Source of the DNA: Patescibacteria group bacterium
GTDB taxonomy: Bacteria; Patescibacteriota; Minisyncoccia; Phycocordibacterales; BOKC01
DNA: 64,000 nt
Assembly: GCA_038062955.1 (NCBI GenBank)
Contig: JBBTWE010000001.1
Span: 182,304-246,303 of the forward strand
Direction: 5' to 3'
The position numbers and the translations under genes were made by a program. This document shows, piece by piece, positions 7,912 through 40,956 of this stretch. Every line of letters starts with the position of its first letter. The first letter of the stretch is position 1. Below the pieces are notes generated by a model. It ran no database searches, was not told where the DNA came from, and saw only the letters and a list, made by a program, of their open reading frames with translations.

Positions 7912-7968
7912 TAACTTTTTAAAAACAAGTGCTAGCCATACTAACAAAAAAAGCCCTAATTAGTCAAC

Positions 7969-8053
7969 CCCGTAGTACCTACCTACCGGCAAGGCAAGGA
8001 TTTTGGCATAGCAACTTCGTTGCGGGAGCAACAATGCCAAAATTCACTACGGG
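7969..8053. mobile_element. MITE-like element copy 1 (85 bp; CCCGTAGT / ACTACGGG terminal inverted repeats; 6-bp target-site duplication GTCAAC at 7963-7968 and 8054-8059)
   Basis: inverted termini plus exact flanking direct repeat; the target-site duplication overlaps the -35-like TTGAC of the infA promoter; internal ccTaccggcaaggcaagg palindrome. Confidence 0.7.
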
Positions 8054-8086
8054 GTCAACCCAAATCCTGCGGGATCAAATTATATT

Positions 8087-9373
8087 CTAATTTGCCCCTG
8101 AAGATTTTTCTATCTTTATATTTTCTGGTTTTTTTGGAAAATTTCTTTTCCAAAATGGTTTAATTGAAGAAACAGCTTCTTGTATTGCGCCAAAATTAGA
8201 AAGAATTAGGGTTAATTCAGATTTTGAATGACCAGCTATTGCCGTCTTTAATGCTTCCTCGTCCAGATTCCATATAAGTCTTGCTTTGCCTTTTAATTTA
8301 AAATCAAAAGATTTTAAATTTTGCATATCTTTTATTTCTTCAAACTCAAAAGTTAGAGTTTCAATATTGGAAACTGTTATATCTTCTTCTGGGGTTTCTG
8401 AAACTTTTCCGATGATTGCTTTTTCTATAGATTTTCGGCTTAGAATTATTCCTGAAGCTGTTATTTTTTCTCGAACCTCAACTAAGTTCCCTGTATTTTT
8501 TTGTGGTAAAGATTCAAAATTAGTTTTCAAACTTTGTGGAATTAAAATAAAGTTTTCTGGCACTTCAGTAATAACACTGTCTCTGATTGTTGAACTCAAA
8601 GAATTTTGAAGCTCGAGAGTGGCGCTTCCTAGTGCTTTTTCATCAACCACTTTAACTTTTCCGATCAGACCACCAGTCATTGGTGTAGATGATCTTGCAA
8701 AAATGGTACTAAATTGTGGTTTTCCTTTAAAGCCTGGAACTGTAAAATCAGTTAAGGCAACATTGTATTCTTCTCCAGGGAAATCGGCGTAAACCTTCAC
8801 TTTTAATTGTCCTGGGATCACCTCTCCTTCTTTTTTAGTAAAGCCCGGTACTGTGATTGATTCTCTAATTCTATAAATCAAGCCTAAAGGAGTTTCAAAT
8901 CGTGTATTTGTGATTAAAGTTTGTGGTTTTTCACTGTATTTATTGAATATAACAATCTCCCCGCTGGCTTTTCTTTCTACTTCTTCCTCTCCAGACGCAG
9001 TTAATTCTTTGCTCAATTCTTTTGAAACACTAATTATTTCAAAAGGAATACCAGTTTTGGTGCTAACCTTGCTTCCTGTAAAAGTTCCATCAAAATCATG
9101 CGTCGCTTCTTTTATTGTAACTTTGATAAGAGCGCTGTTTACAGTGAATGACCACAGGACAAAGAATAATAAAATAAATCCTATGATCCAAAGGACTGGC
9201 CGCATTTTTTTCTTTCGTGGCATTTCCGGCAAAATATCTTCTTCCGGAGTATCTTCTGTCACTTCTTCAATCTGTCGTATAGGAACTCGTTTTGAAGATA
9301 ACGGTATATTTCTTATGCTCCGATTTTCTGGCGGCAGAATATCTCTCACTACTTGTTTAGAGTTATTGTTCAT
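8087..9373 (-). CDS. hypothetical membrane-anchored protein (single N-terminal TM, large extracytoplasmic part)
   Basis: 428-aa ORF with the hydrophobic stretch VLWIIGFILLFFVLWSF; no recognisable catalytic motif. Confidence 0.6.
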   Translation of the reverse strand: MNNNSKQVVRDILPPENRSIRNIPLSSKRVPIRQIEEVTEDTPEEDILPEMPRKKKMRPVLWIIGFILLFFVLWSFTVNSALIKVTIKEATHDFDGTFTGSKVSTKTGIPFEIISVSKELSKELTASGEEEVERKASGEIVIFNKYSEKPQTLITNTRFETPLGLIYRIRESITVPGFTKKEGEVIPGQLKVKVYADFPGEEYNVALTDFTVPGFKGKPQFSTIFARSSTPMTGGLIGKVKVVDEKALGSATLELQNSLSSTIRDSVITEVPENFILIPQSLKTNFESLPQKNTGNLVEVREKITASGIILSRKSIEKAIIGKVSETPEEDITVSNIETLTFEFEEIKDMQNLKSFDFKLKGKARLIWNLDEEALKTAIAGHSKSELTLILSNFGAIQEAVSSIKPFWKRNFPKKPENIKIEKSSGAN

Positions 9374-9452
9374 TAGCCTTATTTTATAAGATTAAACACT
9401 TTTTGTGAAGCTCTTCTCCGGAGTGGATAACTATTTAAATAGTTAAATAGTT

Positions 9453-9671
9453 TTATAATTTTTCGATTTCTTTTAAATCTCCATCTGGTAGATATAAAAT
9501 AATTAACCCGATAAAGATTCCTCCAACAGCGGTCCAAATATGACTGCTGTTAAAAATCAATATATCGAACTCATCTAACACATACCAAATTCCGCGCCAA
9601 ATCAAAACCAAACCAATGACGATAGAGATATCTTTGGCGAGAGATCGAATAGTCACTTTATTTTCTGGCAT
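9453..9671 (-). CDS. small hypothetical membrane protein
   Basis: 72 aa with two predicted TM helices. Confidence 0.4.
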   Translation of the reverse strand: MPENKVTIRSLAKDISIVIGLVLIWRGIWYVLDEFDILIFNSSHIWTAVGGIFIGLIILYLPDGDLKEIEKL

Positions 9672-9731
9672 AATATTTGCGAATTAATTATTAATTATTT
9701 AATTGGCTTGTTGTGTGTTTCCTACACAATT

Positions 9732-10943
9732 TTAACGAATTATCTTATCAAGAAAAATTGTATCAATCGCAAGAAGCGTGTCTGGTTCATCAGTGCTAAA
9801 TTTACAAAACTGGCTAAGAGCCTTGGTATTTAAGGAAATAATCTCCGAGTTTTTTGATAAAGGCGATTCTATTAACTGACTTTTTAGGAATTCTGACCAA
9901 AATGGAACGAGAGGAGATTCCATTGCCAAAAAAATTCGGAGCGGCAACTTTTCTTTTAAGGTGTATAAAGTTTTTTTGAAATTATTCATCCACTCTGTTT
10001 CCGAGTGTTTTATAACCTCTTTTATTTTGTCGTTGAAGGTTTTTTCAGATCTTTGTTCATAAAATAATTTTATAAAAGACAACGCAATATCAGGATTGAC
10101 TGCGAACTCTTTAATCACATTTCTCAAGAAGAGATTTTTGCCAGATTCTAAATAGGACGAATCGGTAACCAAACCATCTTTTACAGAGGTCATCTCGGTT
10201 ATTTCTCCACCAACCTCTACTAGCAAATAGTCGTGCGCCTCTGGAAACATTTCTTCGATTATTGCAAAACCAGTGAGAGAAAAAGAATGGAAGATAATAT
10301 TGCTGGAAACTTGGGAATGAATTGTGCTTCCAATTTTATCCATCACTTTCTTTAAAATTTTCCCTTCAAACACAGAAAGCTCTATTTCTCGAGCCGTCTT
10401 GTTTATTGGATCTAGCACCACATAGCCATTCAGTTTGGTCTGTATTATCTTCTTCTCTATTGTTTTATATAGATCTTCTTTTTCTCCTATCTTGGTGAGA
10501 TTTTCGCCTTGTTTCCCAGTATTATTTGGGGTTTCAGAATCATACAGATTTATTTTTTTAGTGATGAGTTCTATTAGTTTTGGAGTGATTTCTGTCTGGT
10601 TTTTTTCTTTAATTCCGTAAGTTTTGATTTTTGATATGCACCACGGCGAAGAAACGATGCACAAGACATTTTTGATTTTCTTAGTTTCTAGTTTTCTTAA
10701 GCTTACATGGAGAGTTTTTGCTGATTCCTTAAGAACAATCTTTAAAAGTTTTTGGAGATTTTGGCAGATGTCGTCTATTGATTTTTCTTTGTTCCATTTT
10801 TCAGTTAAAGGCAGACTTAGTCGCCTATTTAAAATTATTTCAGGGATATGGTTTTCTTTGAGATAAACCAAAGCCACTCCAACACTGAAGTTTCCAATAT
10901 CAACAACGAGATGCACCCCTTCTTTTGTATCTTGCCCAAACAT
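9732..10943 (-). CDS. actin-like / Ppx-GppA-like ATPase-fold protein (FtsA/PilM- or exopolyphosphatase-like)
   Basis: N-terminal HLVVDIGNFSVGVALV (phosphate-1-like) and LLVEVGGEITEMTSV (phosphate-2-like, DIGGG-type) motifs. Confidence 0.35.
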   Translation of the reverse strand: MFGQDTKEGVHLVVDIGNFSVGVALVYLKENHIPEIILNRRLSLPLTEKWNKEKSIDDICQNLQKLLKIVLKESAKTLHVSLRKLETKKIKNVLCIVSSPWCISKIKTYGIKEKNQTEITPKLIELITKKINLYDSETPNNTGKQGENLTKIGEKEDLYKTIEKKIIQTKLNGYVVLDPINKTAREIELSVFEGKILKKVMDKIGSTIHSQVSSNIIFHSFSLTGFAIIEEMFPEAHDYLLVEVGGEITEMTSVKDGLVTDSSYLESGKNLFLRNVIKEFAVNPDIALSFIKLFYEQRSEKTFNDKIKEVIKHSETEWMNNFKKTLYTLKEKLPLRIFLAMESPLVPFWSEFLKSQLIESPLSKNSEIISLNTKALSQFCKFSTDEPDTLLAIDTIFLDKIIR

Positions 10944-11055
10944 TACCTAAATTATATCAGATTCTTTAAGATTTAAGATGTATCATTTAAGATTTATGAT
11001 TTCTGCCTTACGGCAGACAGGTAAAATTAATAAAAAAGCCCCACGACTAGTGAAA

Positions 11056-11253
11056 TTAGCGTGAAGCGGTGCCTCGGGCCTCTACATGTTTGCGGATGAC
11101 ATCAACAAGTTCTTTGGCTACTTGCTCAACTTGTGAGTTCATAACTTGCGATACTGGCTCATGCGGCAAACGAGATCTCATCAATTCAATCTGAAAATGC
11201 ATCAATATGTTGTGAATCTGATCCTCGCTGATAGTCTTGCTGGCAGTGTCCAT
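11056..11253 (-). CDS. hypothetical protein (GC-rich island B ORFan, 65 aa)
   Basis: GC-rich ORF with a perfect ribosome-binding site (AAAAGGAGGcgacaATG) and an upstream TTGGAC promoter-like box; compositionally foreign. Confidence 0.45.
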   Translation of the reverse strand: MDTASKTISEDQIHNILMHFQIELMRSRLPHEPVSQVMNSQVEQVAKELVDVIRKHVEARGTASR

Positions 11254-11354
11254 TGTCGCCTCCTTTTTTGTGGATGTTGAGAAAGAACTGCTCGAAAAAA
11301 CATACTCTTTTTAAGTAGTTTTGTCCAATTCCTTTTTATCCTGATGTCTAGTGC

Positions 11355-13133
11355 CTATTCCAACACTGCTTTGATCCTCCTTACTCCAGCAGAAACGGCT
11401 TCTTCTTTGAGGATTTTGAATTTTCCATTCAAATCACCGGTATTTTTAACATGAGGACCTCCACAGAATTCTTTGGAGTATGCAGTTTCCAGATTTTTGC
11501 CAGAGAAATAAACATCAACTTCATTGCCGTATTCTTCACCAAAAAAATGTAGAGCTCCAACTTTTTCCGCTTCAGCCTTTGGTAGAGTTATTTTATTCAT
11601 TGGCAGTTTTTCTTCAATTTTTTCATTCACAATCTCTTCAACTAGTTTTTTCTCTTCAGGCGTCATTTTCTTTGGATGTTCAAAGTCAAAACGCAGTCTT
11701 TCTGGGGTGATATTTGATCCTCTCTGTCTGACACTTGATCCTAAAACGTCTCGCAAAGCTTGGTGAAGAAGATGGGTGGCCGTATGGTACTTTACTGACA
11801 TCTCACTTGTATCTCCAAGTCCACCTTTAAATTTTTTCTCCGCTCCCGTACGAGAAAGTTCCTGATGCTTCTTAAAAAGTTCCTCAACTTCTTGCTTTTC
11901 TATTTTAATTCCCTTTTCAAGAGCTAACTCAATAGTTAGTTCGATTGGGAATCCGTATGATTGGTATAAATTAAAGATTTCTTCAGGTTTAAAATCAGTT
12001 ATTTTCTCAAATTCTTTCATGCCCTTAGAAAGAGTATTTCGAAATTTTTGCTCTTCTTTTTCAATTTCCTGTTTTATAGTCTCTTTTTTATTAAAGAGAT
12101 TTGGATATACATCTTTATATTTTTCTATAACTATTTCTGCGATTAAAAGAATCGATCCAGGTTTTATACCTAGTTTTTCAGCATGATTAATAGCTCGGCG
12201 CAAAAGTCTTCGCAAAATATATCCTCTGTCTGTGTTAGACGGTGTTACTCCCTCAGCAATCATGAATACAGAAGTTCGAATGTGGTCAGCAACTACGCGT
12301 TTGCTTTTTGTAAGCGGCTTATTACTTAATGAGTCAATTTTTTCAAAAATCCCGTCAAATAGATCAGTATCAAAGATATTAGTTTTTCCTTGAAGCACCG
12401 CGCATACCCGTTCAAATCCGGATCCGGTGTCAACGTTTTTATTTTCAAGCTTGCCGACAACTTTGTCGTCTTTTTTGATATATTCCATGAAGACGTTGTT
12501 CCAGATTTCAACCACTTTCTGCTCGTCATCAGCCTTGAGATATTCGTCTTTGGTCATTCCTTTGTCTAACTTTCCGGTGAGATCATAGAACATTTCAGTA
12601 TCAGGACCACATGGGCCATTCGGCCCCGGTTGCCACCAATTATTCTTTGCTGGCATGAAATAAATTCGTTCGCCCGTTACATTATTTTTTTTGAAAATTT
12701 CTCGCCAAATTTCTGCGGATTCTTCATCTCGGGGTGCATCATCATTTCCTTCAAAACAAGTTACATAAAGTCTTTGTGGATCGAGTCCAAATCCTTCAGA
12801 TTTTGAAGTTAAAAGCTCATAGCTCCAGGCAATTGATTCTTTTTTAAAATAATCTCCCAAAGACCAATTCCCCATCATTTCAAAAAAAGTGAGGTGAGTA
12901 TTGTCCCCAATCTCGTCTATATCGCCAGTTCTTACGCATTTCTGAATGTTTGCCAATCTTTTCCCAGCTGGGTGAGGAGTGCCTAAAAGATATGGAACAA
13001 GTGGTTGCATTCCGGCAGTATTAAAAAGCACCGACGGGTCATTTTCGGGTATCAAAGAAGCAGACGGAATAATCGCATGTCCGCGTTTTTCAAAAAATTT
13101 TAAGAATCTCTTTCTGATTTCTTGGCTATTCAT
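11355..13133 (-). CDS. alaS: alanine--tRNA ligase, short form (592 aa; catalytic, tRNA-binding and editing domains, no C-terminal extension)
   Basis: MNSQEIRKRFLKFFEKRGH...FNTAGMQP... plus editing-domain HTATHLLHQALRDVLG... Confidence 0.9.
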   Translation of the reverse strand: MNSQEIRKRFLKFFEKRGHAIIPSASLIPENDPSVLFNTAGMQPLVPYLLGTPHPAGKRLANIQKCVRTGDIDEIGDNTHLTFFEMMGNWSLGDYFKKESIAWSYELLTSKSEGFGLDPQRLYVTCFEGNDDAPRDEESAEIWREIFKKNNVTGERIYFMPAKNNWWQPGPNGPCGPDTEMFYDLTGKLDKGMTKDEYLKADDEQKVVEIWNNVFMEYIKKDDKVVGKLENKNVDTGSGFERVCAVLQGKTNIFDTDLFDGIFEKIDSLSNKPLTKSKRVVADHIRTSVFMIAEGVTPSNTDRGYILRRLLRRAINHAEKLGIKPGSILLIAEIVIEKYKDVYPNLFNKKETIKQEIEKEEQKFRNTLSKGMKEFEKITDFKPEEIFNLYQSYGFPIELTIELALEKGIKIEKQEVEELFKKHQELSRTGAEKKFKGGLGDTSEMSVKYHTATHLLHQALRDVLGSSVRQRGSNITPERLRFDFEHPKKMTPEEKKLVEEIVNEKIEEKLPMNKITLPKAEAEKVGALHFFGEEYGNEVDVYFSGKNLETAYSKEFCGGPHVKNTGDLNGKFKILKEEAVSAGVRRIKAVLE

Positions 13134-13155
13134 ACTGAATACTATATACCATATA

Positions 13156-13767
13156 CTAACTTTGCTTCAAAACTTTAAAATCTTCTTTCAAAGTGTCTTT
13201 GGTGTGAGAATTATAGATGGCAACGGCAGGGTGATAGAGAGGAATAATTTTCATTTTTCCGAAACTTGCGTCGGTTTCGAAAATTTTCCCGTGAATTTTG
13301 GAAATTGGTTCGATGTCAAAATCTAGGCCGAATTTTCGCATAATATAATCCATTGAAAAACGCCCGAGAGTCGCAATGATTTTTGGCTTAATTATTTCAA
13401 TCTGCCTGTCCAAAAAAGGGCCGTAAACTTCTATTTCTTCCGGAAGCGGATCTCGATTCCCCGTCGGCCGATCTTTTACAATATTTGTTATATAAATATC
13501 TTTTCGATCTAATTTCACACTCTCTAAAAGTTCATCCAAAACTCTACCGGACGCTCCACAAAAAGGCTTGCCGGTTAACGCTTCGTTTTTTCCTGGAGCT
13601 TCGCCGATGAATACAATTTCGGCAAAATGACTTCCCTCTCCAATCACCGGGAAAACTTTATTAGCGATTCTTTCTTTGTATAAAGGAGAATTTTTGAGAG
13701 CAACAACCTCGTCCTTGATCTGCCTCATGAGTTCCTTCCTTTTTTCTGTTTCTACTACATCTAACAT
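13156..13767 (-). CDS. udg: uracil-DNA glycosylase, family 4
   Basis: GEAPGKNEALTGKPFCGASGRVLDELL motif. Confidence 0.85.
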   Translation of the reverse strand: MLDVVETEKRKELMRQIKDEVVALKNSPLYKERIANKVFPVIGEGSHFAEIVFIGEAPGKNEALTGKPFCGASGRVLDELLESVKLDRKDIYITNIVKDRPTGNRDPLPEEIEVYGPFLDRQIEIIKPKIIATLGRFSMDYIMRKFGLDFDIEPISKIHGKIFETDASFGKMKIIPLYHPAVAIYNSHTKDTLKEDFKVLKQS

Positions 13768-13796
13768 TCAATAATAATAACCCCACAATCTATATA

Positions 13797-13845
13797 AAAA
13801 AAGCGCCTCGCGATTCGTTGTTCACGAATTTCGCAAGGCGCCGTT
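13797..13845 (-). terminator. intrinsic terminator of island C, homologous to 43016-43064
   Basis: ggcgccttgcgaaattcgtgaacaacgaatcgcgaggcgc plus T7 on the minus strand; about 80% identical to the terminator of island L gene 3. Confidence 0.65.
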
Positions 13846-13870
13846 GGGCGAGCTGTAGATTTGTTACTAC

Positions 13871-15027: not shown

Positions 15028-15032
15028 AATTT

Positions 15033-15839
15033 CTAACCAAATAGAGTTGGAATCTCTTCTTCTGGACTATTATTTTTTATTTTAGCGATTTTTTTAGTTT
15101 TTGGTGCGGACGTTTTGGTTGAATTTTCTGGTAATTTATCTTTATAAAGTTCTTTGATTACTAAATTCGCGTTTTTTCTGTAAGAGCAATGTTCGCAGTC
15201 GTTGTTTGCATCCGGCAAAGTGTCTTGTTTTAGACATTCTGAAATCTCTAAAAGCACTCCAGGAATCCACGAACTGTCCCCTTCATAAGTAATAACATCA
15301 ACATCAAATTCTAATTTTCCATCAAAGGCTTTTTCGTCCTTTCGGCCATTCACATAAACAAAGTAGCCGGTATTTGAAACATTGTGGCCATTTTGTTTGA
15401 AAAGCCACTGATAAATTTCCATCTGCCTTTTGTAAGCCTGTTGCCAATGTCCGTCGAGATTTGGTTTTTCATTTTTGGAAGTGGCCTTGTAATCTACAAT
15501 GTGAAGTTCTCCATTATCATTCTTCCAAATATCGTCAATTGCGCCGTATACCAAAAAACCCGTTGCTTCATGTTTGTGTTGAATGCCGGTAAAGTTATGT
15601 CGCCATTTTTCTAATTCGGCATGGGCAAATGGAATTGCATTTATCCCATATTTCTTCATGAGAGGGTGAGCTTCTTTGTTCGCCCTATGAATATCAAATT
15701 CTTTTTTTAAGAGATGGTCGACGGCGCTGTTTAAGGTAAAAGCTGGCATCGAGGGACGCTTAACTTGCAATTTTTGATCCAAATAAAAACAGCGTTTACA
15801 TTGGATAAATAAGTCTATTTTAGATCTGCTAAGTTTCAT
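15033..15839 (-). CDS. PD-(D/E)xK nuclease with Cys cluster (Cas4/RecB-exonuclease-like)
   Basis: N-terminal CKRC; IVDYKATS (D...E/D-x-K core); C-terminal CEHC; start codon is part of the MITE target-site duplication. Confidence 0.55.
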   Translation of the reverse strand: MKLSRSKIDLFIQCKRCFYLDQKLQVKRPSMPAFTLNSAVDHLLKKEFDIHRANKEAHPLMKKYGINAIPFAHAELEKWRHNFTGIQHKHEATGFLVYGAIDDIWKNDNGELHIVDYKATSKNEKPNLDGHWQQAYKRQMEIYQWLFKQNGHNVSNTGYFVYVNGRKDEKAFDGKLEFDVDVITYEGDSSWIPGVLLEISECLKQDTLPDANNDCEHCSYRKNANLVIKELYKDKLPENSTKTSAPKTKKIAKIKNNSPEEEIPTLFG

Positions 15840-15970
15840 CCCGTAGTGAAATTTCAGGTAGTTTTGATACCAAAACTTACCGAGATTATATTTAAAATTG
15901 TAAATTAAGAAAAAACTAACCGGTAATATTATTTAGATCTAGTAGTATCAACCTGAAATTCTACTACGGG
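15840..15970. mobile_element. MITE-like element copy 2 (131 bp; target-site duplication tTTCAT/aTTCAT at 15834-15839 and 15971-15976)
   Basis: 21-bp terminal inverted repeat atcccgtagtgaaatttcagg / cctgaaattctactacgggat (19/21); the left target-site duplication is the ATG of the Cas4-like gene. Confidence 0.75.
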
Positions 15971-15975
15971 ATTCA

Positions 15976-20523: not shown

Positions 20524-20614
20524 ATAAATAGTCTGTAATGTAGAATAGAAAGGTTAAATGGTATTAAACCCTTTGATCGTCTACACGCTCGCTAACCGGA
20601 ATAAAGCAAAACCC

Positions 20615-20658
20615 CCGAACCGAAAGGAACGGGGGTTTTGCTTTTTATTTTGACTTTA
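20615..20658. terminator. bidirectional intrinsic terminator
   Basis: A-run, aaaacccccgaaccgaaaggaacgggggtttt, T-run. Confidence 0.75.
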
Positions 20659-20678
20659 TAACTTTTAACCTTATAACT

Positions 20679-21965: not shown

Positions 21966-24527
21966 CTATAACACAATATTCAAAATTTTGCCTTTAACGT
22001 AAATTATTCTTTTTACCTCCTTTCCTTCTATCCATTTTTTAACACTAGGAAGGTCAAGGATCTTCTCTTTTATATCTTTTTCTGACATCTCGCTTTCCAT
22101 CTCAAAAATATCTCTGGTTTTACCATTTATTTGAATAGCTAATTTAGAACTTTGTTTTATTTTTTGAGAATCAAACATTGGCCAAGGAGAAAGATAAATT
22201 GATTTCTTATTTCCTAAATTTGCCCACAATTCTTCTGTGATATGGGGCGCAAATGGCGAGATGAGTTGCAAAACTGTTTCGTATATTTCTTTTGAAATTT
22301 TTTCTTGATTTTCTAGAGCGCCCGCAAGAATCATGAGAGAAGAAATTGCGGTATTAAAATTAAAATTTTCTATATCTTCACCAACTTTTTTTATTGTCTG
22401 GTGAAGAAGGCTCTGTAAATCAGAATTTATGACCTCTAATTTTTTGTTTGTGACTTTTTCTTGGAGTCGCCAAATTTTTTCCAAGAATCTTCTGGAGCCA
22501 ATCATGTTTTGGGTATCCCAAGCAATCGCATTTTCAAATGGACCCATAAACATTTCATAAACGCGGAGCGTATCGGCTCCCCACGTCGCTACAATCTCAT
22601 CCGGATTTATAACATTTCCAAAACGCTTGCTCATTTTTCGGCCGTCAGGGGCCATGATGAGACCGACGTTCTTAAATCTCATAAACGGTTCTTTGGTTGC
22701 AAAAATCTTCATGTCGTACAAAAACTTATGCCAAAATCTAGCGTAAATTAAATGCCGTGTTGCATGTTCAGCTCCACCAATATACATATCAACTGGTAAC
22801 CACGATTCGAAAGCGCTTTTAAATTGCTCCAATCCTTTTTCTGTTTTTGCTTTTAGGCCGTTTACAGGTGTCGACAATAAACCTGTCGACCTAGTAGTTT
22901 TCGATTTCATTGCATACGCCGCGTAATACCAAGAAGACCCCGCCCATTGAGGCATGGTATTGGTTTCTCTTTGCGCTTTTCCACCGCATTTCGGACATTT
23001 TATGTTCACGAAGCTCGCAATATTCGCAAGCGGAGATTCTCCGGTTCCGGATGGTTCGTATGATTTTACTTTCGGCAATTTAACCGGTAAATCTTCGTCA
23101 GGAATCGCAATCCATCCTGGATTCAATAATTCTCCAGTATTAAAATTCTTGTGGTATTCAATCCTCCCCTCCTGCGTCTCGGCTCTTTTTTTACACTGTA
23201 CACAAAAAACAAGTGGGATTGGTTCCCCCCAATATCTTTGCCTTGAAAAAACCCAGTCTCGCAGTTTATAAGTGGTTTTGCGTTTTGCTAATTTATTTTT
23301 TTCTAAATATTTAATAATTTCATTCCGGATGTTACCAGCCACTTTCCCATCAAATTCTTTCGGGTTTTTAAGAACTCCACTCTTCATGTCGGTAAAACAA
23401 ATTTCCAGATTTCTGACTTTTTCTGCGAGCACAGAATCTGCTGGAAACAGAACAGGTTTAAGCGGAATTTTGTATTTCTTGGCAAATTTAAAATCTCTTT
23501 CATCATGAGCAGAGCACTTTACTATTCCGGTTCCATAATCAGCCAGGGCATAGCTTGCAACCCATATTGGTAGTTCCCCATTTTCCACTGGGTCGATTGT
23601 GTATCGTCCGGTAAATATTCCTTCCACTTCTTTTTGCTCTTTAAAACCTGCTTCACTTCTATTTTTTACAAGCCTGGCTGAAAAATCCAAAATTTCTTTT
23701 TTATTTGGAATTCCTTCTAAAAGTTTTGGCAAAAGTGGATGATCGGGCGCGATAACCACAAAAGTATCGGCCGCAAATGCTTCAAAGTGTGCTGAGAAAG
23801 TTTCAATTTTAATATCAGTTCCCTTAATCGGTGACGTAAAAATCATTCCCTCACTTTTTCCTATCCAGTTTCTTTGTGATTCTTTTATTGAATCTGACCA
23901 ATTTAAAAGATTTAAATCTTCGAGAAGTCTTTCAGCATAATCAGTAATTTTAAGCACCCACTGGCGCATGGGTTTTTTCTCGATAACGGATCCACATCGT
24001 TCACATTTTCCATCTTCTAAATCTTCGTTTGCAAGACCAGTTTTGCATGACGGACACCAATTGATTGGCTCAAATGATTCGTAAGCTAATCCCCTTTTAA
24101 ACATCTCAAGGAAGATGAGTTGTGTCCATTTGTAATATTCTGGATCAGTTGTATTTATTTCTCTGTTCCAATCATAATTAAAACCCAAAACCTCGAGCTG
24201 TTTTTTAAAAGTATTTACATTTTTCTTAACTGCAATTTCTGGGTGAATTTTATTTTTTATAGCAAAATTTTCGGCTGGAAGTCCAAAAGCATCCCAACCC
24301 ATGGGGTGAAGTATGGAAAATCCTTTAGCTTTTTTGTACCTGGAGTAAACGTCCGTTGCGATATAACCTTTTGGGTGTCCTACATGAAGCCCGTCGCCGG
24401 ATGGATAAGGGAACATATCAAGGACATAACATTTTTCTTTTGGAGAGGCGTCAGTTTTGAAAATCTTTTTCTTGTCCCAAACTTTCTTCCATTTCGATTC
24501 TATTTTTTTGTGGTTGTACTCTTTCAT
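21966..24527 (-). CDS. leuS: leucine--tRNA ligase
   Basis: MFPYPSGDGLHVGHPKGY (HIGH region) and KMSKRFGN (KMSKS); the start is the ATG at 24525-24527 (MKEYNHKKIESKWKK); the 14 extra codons in the ORF track come from the MITE. Confidence 0.95.
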   Translation of the reverse strand: MKEYNHKKIESKWKKVWDKKKIFKTDASPKEKCYVLDMFPYPSGDGLHVGHPKGYIATDVYSRYKKAKGFSILHPMGWDAFGLPAENFAIKNKIHPEIAVKKNVNTFKKQLEVLGFNYDWNREINTTDPEYYKWTQLIFLEMFKRGLAYESFEPINWCPSCKTGLANEDLEDGKCERCGSVIEKKPMRQWVLKITDYAERLLEDLNLLNWSDSIKESQRNWIGKSEGMIFTSPIKGTDIKIETFSAHFEAFAADTFVVIAPDHPLLPKLLEGIPNKKEILDFSARLVKNRSEAGFKEQKEVEGIFTGRYTIDPVENGELPIWVASYALADYGTGIVKCSAHDERDFKFAKKYKIPLKPVLFPADSVLAEKVRNLEICFTDMKSGVLKNPKEFDGKVAGNIRNEIIKYLEKNKLAKRKTTYKLRDWVFSRQRYWGEPIPLVFCVQCKKRAETQEGRIEYHKNFNTGELLNPGWIAIPDEDLPVKLPKVKSYEPSGTGESPLANIASFVNIKCPKCGGKAQRETNTMPQWAGSSWYYAAYAMKSKTTRSTGLLSTPVNGLKAKTEKGLEQFKSAFESWLPVDMYIGGAEHATRHLIYARFWHKFLYDMKIFATKEPFMRFKNVGLIMAPDGRKMSKRFGNVINPDEIVATWGADTLRVYEMFMGPFENAIAWDTQNMIGSRRFLEKIWRLQEKVTNKKLEVINSDLQSLLHQTIKKVGEDIENFNFNTAISSLMILAGALENQEKISKEIYETVLQLISPFAPHITEELWANLGNKKSIYLSPWPMFDSQKIKQSSKLAIQINGKTRDIFEMESEMSEKDIKEKILDLPSVKKWIEGKEVKRIIYVKGKILNIVL

Positions 24528-24653
24528 CCCGTAGTAGAAAATGGCATAGTTGCTTCGCAACTTGTTCATTTTTTTAAAATATATTTTATATAATTAATGA
24601 CCGTTTGTTATAATTTAAGTTCGTAATTTTACAATGCCATTTTTCACTACGGG
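24528..24653. mobile_element. MITE-like element copy 3 (126 bp; target-site duplication tTTCAT/aTTCAT at 24522-24527 and 24654-24659)
   Basis: terminal inverted repeat cccgtagtagaaaatggcat / atgccatttttcactacggg; the left target-site duplication is the ATG of leuS; internal TTGTAA-N16-TATAAC outward promoter-like motif facing leuS. Confidence 0.75.
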
Positions 24654-24786
24654 ATTCATACCCTCTCTCCATTCTCCCGTATTTTCTCCAATATTTCAAG
24701 AGATAATACAAAAATTGGCAAAAAGAAAGGGCGGCCATTGCTGGTCGCCCCTGGTGGAAGTTTGTTCTTGAGCCTTCCACTTTCGT

Positions 24787-34090: not shown

Positions 34091-34091
34091 C

Positions 34092-34819: not shown

Positions 34820-34920
34820 CTGTCGTCCTTGCGATGGTATGTCATCGTCATTGTTGCGTTTTCTAAGAAGATCAATCTACTTTTACGTTATCGTGGATTC
34901 TTTAGCTTGTCAAAATTTGG

Positions 34921-34937: not shown

Positions 34938-35054
34938 TCCACCTACCGTGGCGGGTGGTTTTCGATTTCGTAAACTCAATAACGAAAACCCTTTCGATCC
35001 CGCTACGGAGTGAAGCAGTTCACTCCTCCGGTTCCTAACTCACTGCGTTCGTTG

Positions 35055-35127
35055 TGGACCATAGCGGGATCGAACCGCTCACCTCGCACATGCCATGCGC
35101 GCGCTCTACCAAATGAGCTAATGGCCC
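35055..35127 (-). tRNA. tRNA-Ala (anticodon GGC)
   Basis: revcomp is GGGCCATTAGCTCATTTGGTAGAGCGCGCGCATGGCATGTGCGAGGTGAGCGGTTCGATCCCGCTATGGTCCA: cloverleaf with G3:U70, anticodon loop AUGGCAU, T-loop GGTTCGATCC; CCA is not encoded. Confidence 0.9.
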
Positions 35128-35142
35128 TTTAAATTTATGATT

Positions 35143-35162
35143 CCTGCCTGCCGGCAGGCAGG
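35143..35162. repeat. perfect GC palindrome cctgcctgccggcaggcagg, second copy
   Basis: identical to 3999-4019. Confidence 0.7.
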
Positions 35163-35179
35163 TTGAATCTAATTCCTAA

Positions 35180-35629
35180 CTAAAGACCAATTTTTTCCAT
35201 CCTTCTCTCTTTCTTTTTTTGATCCTCTTTTAGCTTTTTGATACCGTCACGAATGTTGAGTCCAGTATTTATTCCTCGCAACAATCTTACTAGGCGAGTA
35301 AATCGTAGAATACGGAGCACTCGGAAAAAACCGTCGGAGAATGGAAGTGATCCGAGAAAATCGAGTAAATTTTCCGGAATGTATTTTAGTCCTCGACCAG
35401 AAAAAAACATACTCACTAAAAAATCAGTTAAGAAGATATAAGCGATAGCTAAATCCAGATTATATAATAAATCAATGGTGAGCGGGCTTAAATCTTTCCC
35501 AAAATAATCATAAAGAAACATAAATCCCGAGGCAAAAGCCAGGATCGCTATTACGATGATATACCAAAGCCTGTTTTGGATGGAAGTGCATATATCCCCC
35601 ATCCTGTCTTTAAAACTTTTAGATTTCAT
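35180..35629 (-). CDS. ion-transport-domain fragment protein (voltage-sensor S3/S4-like helices)
   Basis: FRVLRILRFTRLVRLLRGINTGLN (Arg at every third position, S4-like) preceded by TM helices; 149 aa. Confidence 0.45.
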   Translation of the reverse strand: MKSKSFKDRMGDICTSIQNRLWYIIVIAILAFASGFMFLYDYFGKDLSPLTIDLLYNLDLAIAYIFLTDFLVSMFFSGRGLKYIPENLLDFLGSLPFSDGFFRVLRILRFTRLVRLLRGINTGLNIRDGIKKLKEDQKKKERRMEKIGL

Positions 35630-35795
35630 TCATATATTCTAACTTAAAACCTAAGAAAATCTCAAATTTATAGTAGAATAGAAGAATACCTGTCCCGTTA
35701 GAAGCCGTGGTTACTGATCAAAAAGTAAAGACAAAGAATAAAATGAGTCGAACTATTTATAAATATTATTCTAGCAAGAGCGCCTTAACCGCGAC

Positions 35796-38456
35796 ATGCT
35801 TTCTAATGGGATGAATTCTAAAAATTGGCATTCTGGTTCGCTTAAAGATTTGACCAAAGAGTTAGGGGCAGATATTACCAGTGGTTTGTCGACAAAAGAG
35901 GTTTCAGACAGAAAACTTAATGTGGGACCAAACGTTTTGCCTCGTGGGAAAGTTGTGCATTGGTGGGAGATGCTTTTTGAGCAGTTTAAAAATCCGCTCA
36001 TCATAATTCTTTTAATCGCCGCTCTGATTACTTTTCTGCTTGATGAAAAATTAGACACTCTTGTCATCATGCTTGCGGTTACAGTAAACATCGCGATTAG
36101 TTTTTGGCAGGAATTTCGTTCTAATAATATTTTTGAAAAGCTCCAGAAACTCATAACAATAACTACGAGAGTTAAGAGAAATGGAAAGCTTTACGAAGTT
36201 AATTCGGAAGATTTGGTCCCGGGAGATATTATTCTGCTTTATTCTGGTGTCAAAATCCCAGCTGATGCCAGGCTTATTAGTGCGGATGATTTGGAGGTTA
36301 ACGAAGCGCTTCTCACAGGTGAATCGGTGCCAGTAAAAAAGAAAGTAGAAGATGGAATTTCCGCAAACACAGCTTTGGCTGATCGGGTCAATATGGTTTA
36401 CACCGGTACAACAGTAGAAAAAGGGACGGCAGAAGCCGTTGTGGTTGCCATAGGTTCTCACACAGAACTTGGACAAATTGCTTTGCTCACAACTAATGTG
36501 ACAGACCAAAAAACGCCGCTTCAGGAGCGTTTGGCTAATTTAGGTAAAAAAATCACAATTTTTGTTGTTATCCTGGCAATAATAATTTTCGCTGTCGGAA
36601 TTTTTGAACAAGGAAAACTCACGGGGGCAAAATTTGTAGAAATGTTTACTTTGGCTGTTGCCGTTGCCGTTGCCGCCATACCTGAAGGTTTGCCAGCCGC
36701 GCTTTCCATCGTGCTTGCAGTTGCTTCCCAAAAAATATTAAAGAAAAAAGGGTTGGTTAAAACCTTAATCGGAGCTGAAACTCTTGGTTCTACCACTGTT
36801 ATTTGCACAGACAAAACAGGAACACTCACAAAGGGTGTGATGACAGTAGAAAGTGTGCATCATGTAAAAGATGAGAAAAAGGCCGCGCTCATCATGGCTT
36901 TCTCAAATGAAGCAGAGATTATTGAGGGAGGAAAAGTGAGCGGAGAGACAACAGACAAAGCAAAACTTGAATATTATTTGGAACACGGTGGTAATTTGAA
37001 GGAAGATTTGGCGGCTACACCTAGACTTGCGATCTTGCCTTTTAATTCTGAAGACAAATTCATTGCCGCTTTTCATAAATTAGAAAACGGATATGCGGGA
37101 ATGTACGTGTCCGGCGCTCCGGAAAAGTTACTTCAAGTTTCAACTTGCGATGAGGCAGAGAAAAAAGAAATTTCAGAAGAAATATTGGAATTGGCAGGAA
37201 AAGGGTTTCGTCTCATTGGTTTATTCGAGCGAAAATTATCGCCACTTCTTGGTTTGAATTTTAAAAAACAGGAATCTCTGCGAAGCGCGGTTACCCAACT
37301 TGAATTTGTTGGCATTGCGGCTATCAGGGATCCAATTCGCGCGGACGTGAATGAGTCTATGGCTTTGGTTCGTGGCGCGGGAATAAGAGTAATTATGATT
37401 ACTGGAGATCATAAACTCACAGCTCGAGCTATTGGAGATGAATTGAAATTCCGAACAGGAGATAAAAATATTGTTGATGGAATTGAATTGGATAATTTAT
37501 CTAAAGAAGAACTCCGAAAAAGAATTGTTGATATTGATATTATTTCGCGTGCAAATCCAAGTCATAAGATGCTCATTATTGAAGCTCTGCGGGCCAATGG
37601 CGAAGTTGTGGCGATGACCGGGGACGGGGTAAACGACGCTCCAGCGCTTCGCAGTTCTGACATCGGGATTGCTTTGGGATCCGGAACAGATGTGACCAAG
37701 GAAGCATCTGACCTTGTTTTGGTTGATGACAGTTTTTCCACGATTGTTGCGGCAATTCGCCAAGGCAGAATCGCTTTTGATAATATTCGCAAGGTTACAA
37801 TTTTTGCTTTGACCGACAGCTTTACAGAGGTAATCATTATCCTCACGTCGCTCATCATGGGTTTGCCATATCTCGCAATAACCGCAGTCCAGATTCTTTG
37901 GGCCAATCTGATCGAGGATGGACTCCCCGCTTTGTCGCTTGCCTTTGATCCTGGAGAGAAAGACATTATGAGGCGGATGCCATTTAAACGTGTTGAACCA
38001 ATTATAAATAGGTTGGGACTTTATATAATCGGTCTTGTTGGGATTGTTAGTGATTTTGTTTTGGTTGGTTTGTTTATCTGGCTCGCAAAATTTTCAGGGT
38101 ACGATGTTCTCCATATTCAAACTATTATGTTTGCGGCTCTCGGAATGGATACACTCATCTTTATATTTTCTATTAAAACACTTCACAAATCGGCCTTTAG
38201 CAGAGAAGCCCTAAATAATAAATATCTTCTTATTGCAGTTGGGGTCGGTTTTGTCTTGATGTTTAGCGCTATCTACGTGCCATTTCTAAATACACTCCTT
38301 GGCACAATGCCACTTGGAATTTTTGCTCTCTCGCTTGCTTTGGGAACAGGGGTCTTTAGATTAATCTTTATTGAGGTTGTGAAAGCCTATATGCGAAAAA
38401 AAGAGTACTTTAAAATGCATCACACTACAGTTGTAAAATGGGATCACAGGGTCTAG
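35796..38456 (+). CDS. cation-transporting P-type ATPase (P2-type, Ca2+/Mg2+-like)
   Basis: ICTDKTGTLT (DKTGT phosphorylation site), MTGDGVNDAPAL, TGES, 10 TM. Confidence 0.9.
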   Translation: MLSNGMNSKNWHSGSLKDLTKELGADITSGLSTKEVSDRKLNVGPNVLPRGKVVHWWEMLFEQFKNPLIIILLIAALITFLLDEKLDTLVIMLAVTVNIAISFWQEFRSNNIFEKLQKLITITTRVKRNGKLYEVNSEDLVPGDIILLYSGVKIPADARLISADDLEVNEALLTGESVPVKKKVEDGISANTALADRVNMVYTGTTVEKGTAEAVVVAIGSHTELGQIALLTTNVTDQKTPLQERLANLGKKITIFVVILAIIIFAVGIFEQGKLTGAKFVEMFTLAVAVAVAAIPEGLPAALSIVLAVASQKILKKKGLVKTLIGAETLGSTTVICTDKTGTLTKGVMTVESVHHVKDEKKAALIMAFSNEAEIIEGGKVSGETTDKAKLEYYLEHGGNLKEDLAATPRLAILPFNSEDKFIAAFHKLENGYAGMYVSGAPEKLLQVSTCDEAEKKEISEEILELAGKGFRLIGLFERKLSPLLGLNFKKQESLRSAVTQLEFVGIAAIRDPIRADVNESMALVRGAGIRVIMITGDHKLTARAIGDELKFRTGDKNIVDGIELDNLSKEELRKRIVDIDIISRANPSHKMLIIEALRANGEVVAMTGDGVNDAPALRSSDIGIALGSGTDVTKEASDLVLVDDSFSTIVAAIRQGRIAFDNIRKVTIFALTDSFTEVIIILTSLIMGLPYLAITAVQILWANLIEDGLPALSLAFDPGEKDIMRRMPFKRVEPIINRLGLYIIGLVGIVSDFVLVGLFIWLAKFSGYDVLHIQTIMFAALGMDTLIFIFSIKTLHKSAFSREALNNKYLLIAVGVGFVLMFSAIYVPFLNTLLGTMPLGIFALSLALGTGVFRLIFIEVVKAYMRKKEYFKMHHTTVVKWDHRV

Positions 38457-38499
38457 TTGATAAAAAGATTCCACAAAGGAAATACTCGTTCTTTCAGGT

Positions 38500-39069
38500 C
38501 TACAATACTTTGAATCTCTGGATAAAGTAGTAGTAAATCTTATAAGTTATAAAACCAATAAGTGCTCCAAGAAGTATTCCTCCAAGAATGTCTGATGGAT
38601 AATGAACGCCTCCAGCAATACGACCTAAGCCCACGAGAAGCCCTGAAACAAAAATAAAATAAGCTAATTTTTTGTTGAAAAAATACGTAGCGGTGCCGAG
38701 AGCGAATAAAAATATTGTGTGGCCAGATGGGAATGAATAAGAGTCATTTATAAGTAAATGCTCGAGTGATAATGCCAGAAAGGGTCTTGGACGATGATAA
38801 AAATAGCGAAATAGGACGATTACTCCAAAGCGGGCGATAATTGCCGCGATAATTGCGGTAACGTAAGGATAAACATTTTTAATGACACTTTTTCCATTTT
38901 TGTATAAAAAATAACCAAAAACAATAACTACCAAATAGACCAGATATTCTCCAAAAAATACGATGATAAAATCACCGGCCTTCGAATTTCCAGCTAGATT
39001 ATGGAAAAAGCGAAAGATAGATTGATCAATGCCCCTCACGTAATTTGTAAAATTTATTAACATACTCAT
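38500..39069 (-). CDS. PAP2-family phosphatase (undecaprenyl-diphosphatase/phosphatidic acid phosphatase-like)
   Basis: YHRPRP..., FPSGHT, GRIAGGVHYPSDIL motifs. Confidence 0.75.
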   Translation of the reverse strand: MSMLINFTNYVRGIDQSIFRFFHNLAGNSKAGDFIIVFFGEYLVYLVVIVFGYFLYKNGKSVIKNVYPYVTAIIAAIIARFGVIVLFRYFYHRPRPFLALSLEHLLINDSYSFPSGHTIFLFALGTATYFFNKKLAYFIFVSGLLVGLGRIAGGVHYPSDILGGILLGALIGFITYKIYYYFIQRFKVL

Positions 39070-39272
39070 TATTCTTCTGTTCCAGTATCTCGTTTTATTT
39101 GTTCAAATTCATTTTCAATTTCAGACAATCGTTTCTTGCACAATTTTACCAGTTCTGCCCCATCTTTAATACGCAAGAGGCCTGCTTCCACATCCACTTC
39201 ATCCTGTTTTTCAAACCAATTCACAATATCATCTAATTTTTTGAGCGATTCTTTTAAATTTATTTTTGTCAT
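39069..39272 (-). CDS. xseB: exodeoxyribonuclease VII small subunit
   Basis: MTKINLKESLKKLDDIVNWFEKQD...; 67 aa; directly downstream of xseA. Confidence 0.8.
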   Translation of the reverse strand: MTKINLKESLKKLDDIVNWFEKQDEVDVEAGLLRIKDGAELVKLCKKRLSEIENEFEQIKRDTGTEE

Positions 39273-39275
39273 ATT

Positions 39276-40775
39276 TTAATCTATGTTTGTTACTTTAGAA
39301 TCAAAACTGCCATCTAACACTTTTATATTCACTAAATCATCTTTTTTTATTTGCGATACATTGCGCACAATTCTATTTCCTGCCTTCACAATACTATACC
39401 CTAAATTTAATTGCCTATCAGGATCGTGCGTTTGAAGCAATTTTTGTGAAGTTTCAAGCCTTAAAATGATTTTTTTAGTGCTTTCTTCAAAGAGTCGAAC
39501 CCCAGTGCTTAGAAATGAAGATAAGTTTTTGTTTATTTCCGTAAATCGAAGACGCATTGAAACAAAAGCTTGTTTTAAGGCACTTTGTGCCCGATCAAAC
39601 CTTTGGAAAATCGCATTAAAACTTTCTTTCATAATTTCCAGTGCTCGTGTTACGGCATCTTTATTGCTTAACAGACCGCTTTCAAAAATAGAGAAAATCT
39701 TTTTTTGCAACATTTCAATCTTAAAGACTATCTTTTCCCACGATTCGTTCAAGGCTTTGGCGGCCGCGGTTGGTGTTGAAACCATTCTATCAGAAACTAA
39801 TGCGAAAAGTGGTACATCTTTCTCATGACCAATACCCGCGAGAACCGGCACAGGAAAATCCACAATTTCTCGAATAAGAGTTTCGTTATTAAAAGGTAAA
39901 AGTGATTCCATAGATCCGCCTCCACGCATAATTACAAGCACGTCAATATCCTTTTTTTTGCGAAAAGTGCGGAGAGATCCTAGAAGCTGTTTGATTGCTA
40001 GTTGCCCCTCGACCCTCGAATCAATAAGAGAAATTTTGAAACCGAACTTTCCAATATTGGCTAGAAAATCACCTATGGCCGCTCCTTCTTTGGAAGTAAT
40101 TATGCCGATCCTTTGTGGAAAATTTGGTAAAGCTCTTTTTCGTTCAATTTTGAATAAACCCTCACTTTCCAATTTCTTTTTAAGCTCGTCGTACGCTTTT
40201 TTAAGTGCGCCTTCTCCCACAAGTTCAACAGTTTCAGTCCTAAAAGTAAATTTACCTGTTGGTTTATGCACTTCAGGGAATCCAGATACAACTATTTCCA
40301 TTCCCTCGAGTAAATTAACCCCAGACATTTGATAGGAATTCTGCCACATGAAACAGCTTAAAATACTCTTGTCGATTTTGTCTTTCAAGGAAAAAAATAA
40401 ATAAGTTCCTCGAATATCTAAACTACTAATTTCTCCCTGAATTCTGGCGTTTTGTTTTTCCAGACTTTTATTGATTAAAGTTAAATATGTGCCAACCGAA
40501 TACAGAATACTTTGATCGGTTTCATTTTTTATATTGGCTTCTTTCTCATCAAAATCTAAATTTCCATTTACCAAAGATAATATTGAGGCTCCATACTTTT
40601 CAAACTTTTTTTCTTTAATTCCTTTTATACCGATAAGTTCTTCTTTTGATTTTGGCCCAACTTCTAAAATCATCCTCATCGTTTCATTAGAAAAGACCCG
40701 ATAGGCTTCAACACCCTCTTTTTTGGCTGTTTGATTCCGCCAAGCCAGTAATTTTCGAAATAAAGTGTGATCCAT
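39276..40775 (-). CDS. xseA: exodeoxyribonuclease VII large subunit with an N-terminal HRDC-like domain
   Basis: LFRKLLAWRNQTAKKEGVEAYRVFSNETMRMILEVGPKSKEELIGIKGIKEKKFEKYG (HRDC-like), then OB-fold and XseA catalytic region (IGIITSKEGAAIGDF...MRGGGS...); the start is ATGGAT at 40773-40775, which is the MITE target-site duplication. Confidence 0.8.
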   Translation of the reverse strand: MDHTLFRKLLAWRNQTAKKEGVEAYRVFSNETMRMILEVGPKSKEELIGIKGIKEKKFEKYGASILSLVNGNLDFDEKEANIKNETDQSILYSVGTYLTLINKSLEKQNARIQGEISSLDIRGTYLFFSLKDKIDKSILSCFMWQNSYQMSGVNLLEGMEIVVSGFPEVHKPTGKFTFRTETVELVGEGALKKAYDELKKKLESEGLFKIERKRALPNFPQRIGIITSKEGAAIGDFLANIGKFGFKISLIDSRVEGQLAIKQLLGSLRTFRKKKDIDVLVIMRGGGSMESLLPFNNETLIREIVDFPVPVLAGIGHEKDVPLFALVSDRMVSTPTAAAKALNESWEKIVFKIEMLQKKIFSIFESGLLSNKDAVTRALEIMKESFNAIFQRFDRAQSALKQAFVSMRLRFTEINKNLSSFLSTGVRLFEESTKKIILRLETSQKLLQTHDPDRQLNLGYSIVKAGNRIVRNVSQIKKDDLVNIKVLDGSFDSKVTNID

Positions 40776-40917
40776 CCCGTTAGTGAAAAATGGCATTATT
40801 TGCTCGCCGTTTTTATTTTAATGAGTAATATCATCTATGATACAAAATTTAACACACCCCCAAAATTATTTCTCGCAAATAAGAGCTATGCCATTTTCTA
40901 CTACGGGATCCATGAAG
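40776..40917. mobile_element. MITE-like element copy 4 (142 bp; exact 6-bp target-site duplication ATCCAT at 40770-40775 and 40918-40923)
   Basis: terminal inverted repeat cccgttagtgaaaaatggcat / atgccattttctactacggg; the left target-site duplication is the ATG of xseA. Confidence 0.75.
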
Positions 40918-40956
40918 CTTTTGACTTTAGGGTCAAAAAGACAATCTTACAATTAT

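Follow-up and report, generated by a model that had tools for sequence, protein, structure and literature searches.

The window studied here, the whole 64,000-nt stretch at positions 182,304–246,303 of contig JBBTWE010000001.1 from a Patescibacteria group bacterium (candidate phyla radiation, CPR), derives from Hainich groundwater and holds four copies of a short hairpin element that abut the start codons of three genes and the promoter of a fourth. The terminal motif CCCGTAGT, or its complement, has eight exact matches in the window compared with 0.51 expected, a number reached in none of 100 shuffles, and seven of these matches are ends of the four copies, with the termini CCCGTAGT...ACTACGGG that an initial annotation had ascribed to them. 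The eighth match (41102–41109) lies inside an unrelated feature of the plus strand and was rejected as a further copy, and a gapped search of the window for extra copies or for copies of sister families gave none. We consider it probable that these sequences are non-autonomous, hairpin-forming mobile elements of CPR bacteria, similar to MITEs (miniature transposable elements with inverted repeats), with an insertion mode that rebuilds the target signal. The copies and their duplications are as follows, with types named after the two bases that touch the core.

7968–8054: copy 1, C..G type, degenerate, 87 bp with the terminal C (7968) and G (8054); core c1 at 7969–8053, 85 bp
7964–7967: gene-proximal duplication of copy 1, TCAA, which on the minus strand is TTGA of the -35 hexamer; partner at 8055–8058
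15839–15971: copy 2, T..A type, 133 bp with the terminal T and A; core c2 at 15840–15970, 131 bp
15972–15975: distal duplication of copy 2, TTCA (minus-strand TGAA); partner at 15835–15838
24527–24654: copy 3, T..A type, 128 bp with the terminal T and A, adjoining the leuS start; core c3 at 24528–24653, 126 bp
24655–24658: distal duplication of copy 3, TTCA (minus-strand TGAA); partner at 24523–24526
40775–40908: copy 4, T..A type, 134 bp with the terminal T and A, adjoining the xseA start; core c4 at 40776–40907, 132 bp
40909–40912: distal duplication of copy 4, TCCA (minus-strand TGGA); partner at 40771–40774

All four cores fold as long hairpins (z-scores -4.1 to -5.9), with inverted arms of 22 nt (91%) in c2, 25 nt (88%) in c3, 16 nt (88%) in c4 and 10 nt (100%) plus an inner 10 nt in c1. 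Copy 1 is decayed, having a 22-nt insertion that breaks one arm and an interior of only ~24 nt, and copy 4 begins with CCCGTTAGT, a left arm carrying one extra T; its right end was previously placed at 40917, which is 10 positions too far. Copy 3 is inverted in polarity relative to copies 2 and 4. The flanking 6-mers are GTCAAC on both sides of c1, TTTCAT and ATTCAT around both c2 and c3, and ATCCAT on both sides of c4. As the c2 element was seen in four independent assemblies, it is not an assembly artefact.

Read on the minus strand, copies 2, 3 and 4 have as their gene-proximal repeats the start codons of a Cas4-like gene, of leuS and of an HRDC-xseA gene, in accordance with the initial annotation and with the starts given by NCBI (leuS, P0001, 853 aa; xseA, P0147, 499 aa). 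The gene at copy 2 (15033–15839, minus strand; PD-(D/E)XK/Cas4-like according to Pfam) has the complement of T15839 as the A of its ATG, and the distal ATG of this copy (15976–15974) overlaps the TGA stop codon of an upstream MgtC-like gene, forming TGATG. The protein encoded by leuS (21966–24527, minus strand) begins MKEYNHKKIESKW, with the 14 additional residues of the open reading frame (ORF) list being element sequence, and an element-derived N-terminal extension was likewise confirmed for xseA (39276–40775, minus strand), which encodes an HRDC-XseA fusion. Two promoters next to the elements could be defined:

7938–7967, minus strand: infA promoter, with -35 TTGACT at 7967–7962, an 18-nt spacer and -10 TAGTAT at 7943–7938; the infA ATG is at 7911–7909
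24671–24699, minus strand: ancestral leuS promoter, TTGAAA at 24699–24694, a 17-nt spacer and GAGAAT at 24676–24671, as compared with relatives L122 and L126

The repeat of copy 1 overlaps the -35 hexamer TTGACT of infA as had been described, the complete promoter being TTGACT-N18-TAGTAT. The proposal that the element now forms the entire promoter region could not be upheld, since the ancestral leuS promoter persists just upstream of the distal repeat and is kept in an element-free relative; copy 3 thus stands between this promoter and the leuS ORF.

As for the products of two of these genes, the exonuclease VII large subunit encoded at 39276–40775 (minus strand) carries an N-terminal HRDC domain, with PF00570 present in all homologue matches (CPR). 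Many CPR LeuS proteins, including that of the closest relative (985 aa), have an inserted NUDIX domain, which the 853-aa LeuS of the window is without.

Insertion was evident from orthologous loci, where an ancestral untranslated region (UTR) would have spoken against it and where the leuS and xseA sites were instead found to be empty in relatives. In a relative with 84% LeuS identity (L122), the leuS site reads cTTGAAAtattaaggaaaatacggGAGAATggaggaaagatATGCGTGAATATAACCAC and the promoter TTGAAA-N17-GAGAAT is kept, while the window has the same promoter followed by ggagagagggtATGAAT, the element and ATGAAAGAGTACAACCAC; the site is also empty, with the promoter likewise kept, in a relative of 75% identity (L126). 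At the xseA site, gcagttATGGATCACGCT occurs once in an 83% relative, the window reading ATGGAT, element and ATGGATCACACT; the empty site in relative L133 reads ATGGATCAC, and the site is also empty in a 58% relative. A search of JGI metagenomes for a same-species empty allele of copy 3 gave no match. The infA promoter, GTTGACTAATTAGGGCTTTTTTTGG, is kept in relative L129, the neighbouring gene of which is 74% identical, and there a different hairpin element of ~140 bp, CCCCACATCTTTCATAACAT...ATGTTATGAAAGGTGTAGGGG (3817–3960), lies against the same infA -35 hexamer. The site is thereby a hotspot rather than a conserved UTR, and the second element suggests a wider superfamily having Y-CCC...GGG-R ends. 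At locus L001, one start codon has a tandem of three elements that belong to two families (CCCGTTAGAG... and CCCGTAGTAG...), each separated by exactly ATGAAT, and ~10% of elements occur in such tandem arrays, with one 6-mer between elements.

The distribution of the family was determined by scanning GTDB genomes, one for each species, for CCCGTAGTRRAA...TTYYACTACGGG at an arm-to-arm distance of 61–121 nt. This gave at least 117 matching loci compared with ~2–4 expected by chance; all statistics for 123 (or 119) copies given below rest on copies among the matches listed, with ORF-based gene starts at the loci and with crude coding masks in the null models. Patescibacteria metagenome-assembled genomes (MAGs) of many classes accounted for 115 of the 117 matches listed, labelled as Wolfe-, Buchanan-, Uhr-, Andersen-, Nealson-, Taylor-, Zambryski- and Portnoybacteria, as Paceibacterota or as generically labelled bins, and some MAGs gave 5–9 sampled copies, certain of them at least 8–9. 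The two non-CPR matches (Acidobacteriaceae and Syntrophaceae) have atypical flanks and are in line with the chance expectation, and carriage by phages was rejected, with one match among viral contigs. Elements measure 85–145 bp, with ~120–145 bp as the approximate length for the family, and no ORF spans them. Excluding the arms, interiors are 88–94% identical at unrelated loci of one genome, compared with a median of 0.56 between genomes, which indicates proliferation within genomes. The elements are thus short (<300 bp), non-coding and bounded by inverted repeats with 20-bp arms, they have flanking duplications at dispersed copies (four in 64 kb) with empty sites, and the direct repeats were also found at copies elsewhere, so that the classification as a non-autonomous, multi-copy and MITE-like mobile element stands. 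No Rfam family matched the elements at gathering thresholds, with only chance-level hairpins in E-value mode (E >= 0.36), and the papers that could be searched, queried both by sequence and by topic, contained no description of them; the family is widespread in CPR and apparently undescribed.

Sister families with the termini CCCGTTAGAG, CCCGTTCGAAG, CCCGTACGAAA, CCCGTAGAGAA and CCCGGTAGTAGTCCC have the same flank classes. One of them, CCCGTTAGAG...CTCTAACGGG, of ~119 bp and flanked by ATGAAT or GTTGAC, is found at L001 (5899–6278) and also at L009, L060, L043, L080 and L113, and its copies can be interleaved with those of the CCCGTAGT family, in tandem, at a single start codon. Locus L063 carries a ~200-bp promoter module with a 70-bp sister element as an inverted duplicate before two divergent genes (1715–1915 and 4905–5105). 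Contig CAYPQZ010000002.1 (L053/L099) ends at both sides inside different element copies, showing that such repeats break short-read assemblies.

The initial annotation had described 6-bp target duplications, and these 6-mers are present as described, but the true duplication measures 4 bp (in occasional copies 3 or 5 bp). In 120 of 123 copies, the two bases adjoining the core form a complementary pair (T..A in 54, C..G in 65) and therefore belong to the element, while positions 2–5 of the 6-mers agree between left and right in 81–85% of copies, compared with 48% and 40% for the outer positions. The element is hence Y-CCCGTAGT...ACTACGGG-R with a 4-bp target duplication, perfect in 88/123 copies and mostly of the form TNNA or YNNR. 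The identical TTTCAT/ATTCAT mismatch at both c2 and c3 arises because the outer base of one repeat is derived from the target and the inner base of the other from the element. Likewise, a distal GTG, TTG or CTG can face a proximal ATG (L020, L074, L022 and L059), and C..G elements convert ATGAA to GTGAA (L011 and L035), because the start codon takes its first base from the end of the element.

When the duplications were oriented according to the internal polarity of the element, T..A elements gave TGAA in 19 cases (the reverse, TTCA, in four) and TGGA in six, whereas C..G elements gave TTGA in 14 (TCAA in five), TATG and CATA in 11 each and CTTG in four. TGAA and TGGA are positions 2–5 of a start codon and the codon following it, TATG contains the start codon in another register, and TTGA or CTTG is the beginning of a -35 hexamer. 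Accordingly, 82 of 123 elements adjoin the start codon of an ORF of at least 60 aa that reads away from the element, compared with 7.9% of random positions. Abutment of a start codon was seen for 46/54 T..A elements (element-A|TG) and 24/65 C..G elements (G-T-ATG), and proximal copies of the TTGA/CTTG class read TTGACA/T, followed by TAnnnT at a distance of 16–18 nt in 19/23 compared with 5% at random. The genes downstream of the latter sites are diverse, encoding a response regulator, a CsoR-like protein, GroES, aminoacyl-tRNA synthetases and others, and as they are mutually unrelated, these are independent insertions at real promoters. With 4 bp being duplicated and the terminal A or G abutting the gene-proximal copy, an intact ATG or GTG, or a TTGACA at the right distance from the -10, is rebuilt. 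Since the old copy of the signal is left with the upstream DNA, both neighbours keep their signals, which for copy 2 includes the overlapping stop and start codons. A target preference for start codons and -35 boxes, as suggested from the four window copies, was therefore borne out by more than 100 copies in other CPR genomes.

This preference could in principle arise passively. It is possible, if on the doubtful side, that there is no active targeting of signals, with the enzyme favouring certain 4–5-mers (TGRA, TATG, TTGAC) and selection keeping the insertions that rebuild a signal. The loci are ~89% coding, and among ATGAA/ATGGA sites at which insertion would not be disrupting, 49% are already located in start zones by a generous definition, as are 41% of such TATG sites. 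Moreover, 18 of 78 start-codon insertions (23%, copy 2 among them) are operon-internal, with an upstream stop codon at most 12 nt away and no room for a promoter, so that targeting of transcription start sites alone is not the rule and a mechanism based on transcription starts is not needed. Nevertheless, start codons were used by 46/54 T..A elements, or 85% against 49% (p = 3e-8), and non-coding TTGA[CAT] sites have a -10 at the right spacing in 15.6% of cases compared with the 19/23 observed, or 83% against 16% (p = 2e-12). The same signal is also hit again by different families, and hardly any use is made of neutral intergenic positions that lie away from signals. A 4-mer preference in combination with purifying selection hence explains part of the siting, but not all of it. 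Targets also appear to be inherited, with each element lineage keeping to a single target 4-mer in a single orientation: among closely related pairs, 27/29 have the oriented duplication in common, compared with 18% of unrelated pairs, and lineages having different targets coexist in one small genome.

In the analysis of the stem, arm positions 2–13 were fixed by the search pattern with RR/YY left free. One arm has AG and the other GA in 118/119 copies, giving a tandem A.C/G.T mismatch. Positions 1 and 14–20 vary, using all four bases, and are yet equal between the arms in 108–118 of 119 copies compared with 33–69 expected from shuffling, with arm identity falling to chance at position 21. The stem is thus built of 9 bp, two mismatches and 9 bp, making 20-bp arms in which seven of the last nine positions co-vary, and different stem sequences coexist in a single genome. 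Non-Watson-Crick pairs (27/1440) comprised three G.U on the sense strand, eight A.C and 16 others. As there is no excess of G.U on the sense strand, the constraint acts at the level of DNA, or alike on the two strands, rather than on mRNA; selection of the stem at the RNA level was for the same reason rejected.

A stem conserved as structure and not as sequence, with mismatches that point to DNA rather than RNA, is also what could be expected if a Y1 HUH enzyme mobilised the element as a hairpin of single-stranded DNA, in the manner of REPIN/RAYT or IS200/IS605. The elements share with REP/REPIN-RAYT systems a GTAG tetranucleotide near the stem foot and a long persistence in their lineages, and their termini are kept across CPR classes, as would suit a mobiliser that is present in one copy and passed on vertically. 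We find this explanation improbable, however, because the duplications are derived from the target and follow the second codon within one lineage (TGGA, TGCAA, TGAA), whereas HUH elements make none and REPINs are neither flanked by target duplications nor tied to start codons or -35 hexamers. Furthermore, the arms are not self-palindromic, GTAG-headed REPs, the polarity is mixed on one replichore in the window (c2 minus, c3 plus, c4 minus) and no Y1 gene or RAYT was seen in the window or the loci.

Quite improbable, too, is that the elements are cassettes of a tyrosine recombinase, with the junction ACTACGGG-RNNNNY-CCCGTAGT serving as a lox/dif-like site with a 6-bp core that recombines with chromosomal look-alikes. 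That would agree with tandem arrays sharing exactly one 6-mer, with the core 4-mer and orientation being heritable and with a conserved mismatch that marks polarity, like the extrahelical bases of attC sites, but the chromosomal targets are without recombinase-binding arms, four central bases are shared where known tyrosine recombinases use 6–8, and no recombinase gene is associated with the elements in the window or the loci. Finally, an immobile cis-regulatory hairpin of CPR promoters and 5' UTRs, although compatible with the constant position relative to promoters or start codons, the strong stem and the RNase III kept in CPR (PMC12641178), is contradicted by the empty orthologous sites of close relatives, the target duplications, the similar interiors of paralogous copies within a genome, the occurrence both downstream and upstream of the -35 (where the element is not transcribed from that promoter), the lack of sense-strand G.U tolerance and the absence of an Rfam match, and is very improbable.

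With the elements taken as non-autonomous mobile DNA, their mobilisation would occur in trans, through an enzyme whose gene lies elsewhere in the genome. In piggyBac transposition, the element carries its 4-nt TTAA flanks with it. The ends of piggyBac are CCC-rich and its duplication is TTAA, rarely TCAA or TATG (PMC10813416), and its prokaryotic counterpart is the IS1380 family (PMC5718144). The Y-CCCG...CGGG-R ends and the 4-bp, mostly TNNA, duplications of the elements studied here are alike. The most economical mechanism would hence be cut-and-paste transposition of the piggyBac/IS1380 type, in which the 4-nt donor flanks would travel as overhangs that must pair with the new target, and where the 20-bp stem would be a DNA-level requirement of the reaction. 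Such carry-over of donor flanks would explain the heritable target and orientation together with the CCC ends and the 4-bp TNNA duplications. There are also differences, in that the targets here are TGAA, TGGA, TTGA, TATG and CTTG with TTAA being absent among the duplications, the duplication is set apart from CCC by one additional terminal base pair, and the arms co-vary as a 20-bp stem. A piggyBac/IS1380-like enzyme may therefore be regarded as a lead, by analogy, and as no transposase was found in the window or beside the elements in the loci, the enzyme class is a guess.

Candidates for the mobiliser were considered at the loci as well. A recurrent neighbouring gene was rejected in this role, with only housekeeping families recurring, and apparent long elements with the same arms turned out to be pairs of separate small elements only.

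A number of observations weigh against the interpretation as signal-rebuilding mobile elements, or against parts of it. As stated in the initial annotation, the window encodes no transposase or recombinase, judged by Pfam on 20 ORFs and by the contig annotation; no protein family recurs beside the elements, with at most 7/117 listed loci sharing one, all housekeeping; and an autonomous partner sharing the arms was found neither in the window nor in ~0.9 Mb of loci nor among viral contigs. A classical DDE transposase that binds double-stranded ends needs no co-varying arms. About half of the gene-sparing ATGRA sites are start codons, so compact genomes partly explain the association, and the 27/29 pairs with heritable targets stem from only ~5–6 independent lineages. 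The duplication is 3 or 5 bp in L083, L063, L089, L109 and L112 and is missing in L045 and L071, and since the scan demanded perfect 12-nt termini, degenerate copies are under-sampled. Lastly, genes, especially leaderless ones, would have to be expressed with a 130-nt hairpin before the ATG.

With regards to expression, the initial annotation had suggested that the element supplies a promoter. Copy 3 does carry TTGTAA-N16-TATAAC, but across the family promoter-like motifs face the gene in 11/83 elements compared with 20/83 facing away, and the conserved arm has no -10 at a useful distance, so an outward promoter was rejected as a family trait. If the old promoter upstream of the distal repeat is used, the element would, judging from the sequence, become a structured 5' leader. 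Motifs resembling Shine-Dalgarno (SD) sequences precede 11% of confident starts compared with 12% of random positions, and 5% of element-associated starts; initiation in these organisms would thus evidently not depend on SD. A -10-like hexamer is found 4–10 nt upstream of the ATG in 36% of ordinary genes and 52% of element-associated starts, which, as far as sequence can tell, implies that leaderless or near-leaderless mRNAs would be widespread in these CPR genomes. We infer that insertion at start codons is tolerated because the genomes are essentially devoid of SD sequences.

Three further ideas on initiation and targeting were considered. A ribosome-binding site split across the hairpin foot was dropped, with SD-like motifs occurring at random frequency and the leuS 'SD' belonging to a leader that is very short. 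Reinitiation after termination, starting from the distal ATG, was set aside, since the short ORFs terminate early within the element and the lengths of the elements follow no reading frame. Targeting restricted to transcription starts or leaderless genes was weakened by the modest difference of 52% versus 36% and by the operon-internal insertions mentioned above.

A more far-reaching proposal, speculative and in our view rather unlikely, is that the mobiliser reads functional promoters and starts, by way of bound sigma factor or RNA polymerase, the initiation complex or flank pairing, rather than a bare 4-mer, and that the stem doubles as a portable regulatory or processing module. Many CPR genes, essential ones such as leuS among them, would then have the stem between promoter and ATG, where it might serve as an RNase III site or allow initiation across the hairpin foot between the duplicated AUGs.

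In function, the elements otherwise resemble MITEs such as the Correia elements (CREE/NEMIS) of Neisseria, which have a TA duplication and exert promoter effects through sequences that they carry. They are likewise non-autonomous, 100–155 bp long and found in many copies beside genes, with long inverted repeats, co-transcription as hairpins and no known transposase. The present elements differ by their 4-bp duplication, their CCCGTAGT termini, their CPR hosts and the lack of a recognisable promoter, and neither their ends nor their duplication are those of Correia elements. Insertion aimed at a functional signal, and not at arbitrary DNA, is shared with the IS1111-attC group, with group IIC introns that insert at terminators and with Ty3, which inserts at Pol III starts; we know of no bacterial element that targets a -35 hexamer or a start codon. 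The kind of element is MITE-like, and it is unusual in its targets, start codons and -35 hexamers that become rebuilt, and in its reach across CPR.

Some other features of the window may be mentioned. Two large conserved hypothetical proteins without Pfam match, of 428 and 403 aa, are encoded on the minus strand at 8087–9373 and 9732–10943, with the 428-aa gene being syntenic upstream of infA in relatives. At 41026–41260 (plus strand), a promoter of perfect consensus (TTGACA-N16-TATAAT, 12/12) is followed by an ORF-poor and moderately structured stretch (z = -2.5) that contains TCACTACGGGG, resembling an element arm; no Rfam family matched at gathering, with chance-level matches only, and the stretch may be an undescribed small RNA. 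A match to the Rfam family ohsC_RNA, an enterobacterial small RNA antitoxin, at 20603–20669 (minus strand; 55 bits, gathering threshold 50) is implausible in CPR; it is probably spurious or reflects a similar hairpin that lies upstream of a sigma-factor gene. Three dispersed tRNA-Ala genes on the minus strand (35054–35127, 44217–44290 and 53286–53359) have the anticodons GGC, CGC and UGC, two of the three being found by Rfam at gathering.

CPR bacteria, with tiny and gene-dense genomes that offer little room, are considered to be poor in mobile elements. Landing only where the duplication rebuilds the split start codon, -35 hexamer or stop/start overlap would be one route by which such elements could persist there. 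In practical terms, gene callers add false N-terminal extensions at the elements, as for leuS and xseA, and the repeats break assemblies, while the conserved 12-nt termini provide a ready marker for surveys of the family. Essential and in some cases probably leaderless genes that are placed behind a 130-nt hairpin form a natural experiment on how CPR ribosomes initiate translation. Should targeting prove to be directed by a protein or by the state of the promoter, this would, to our knowledge, be the first bacterial transposon homing to promoters and start codons.

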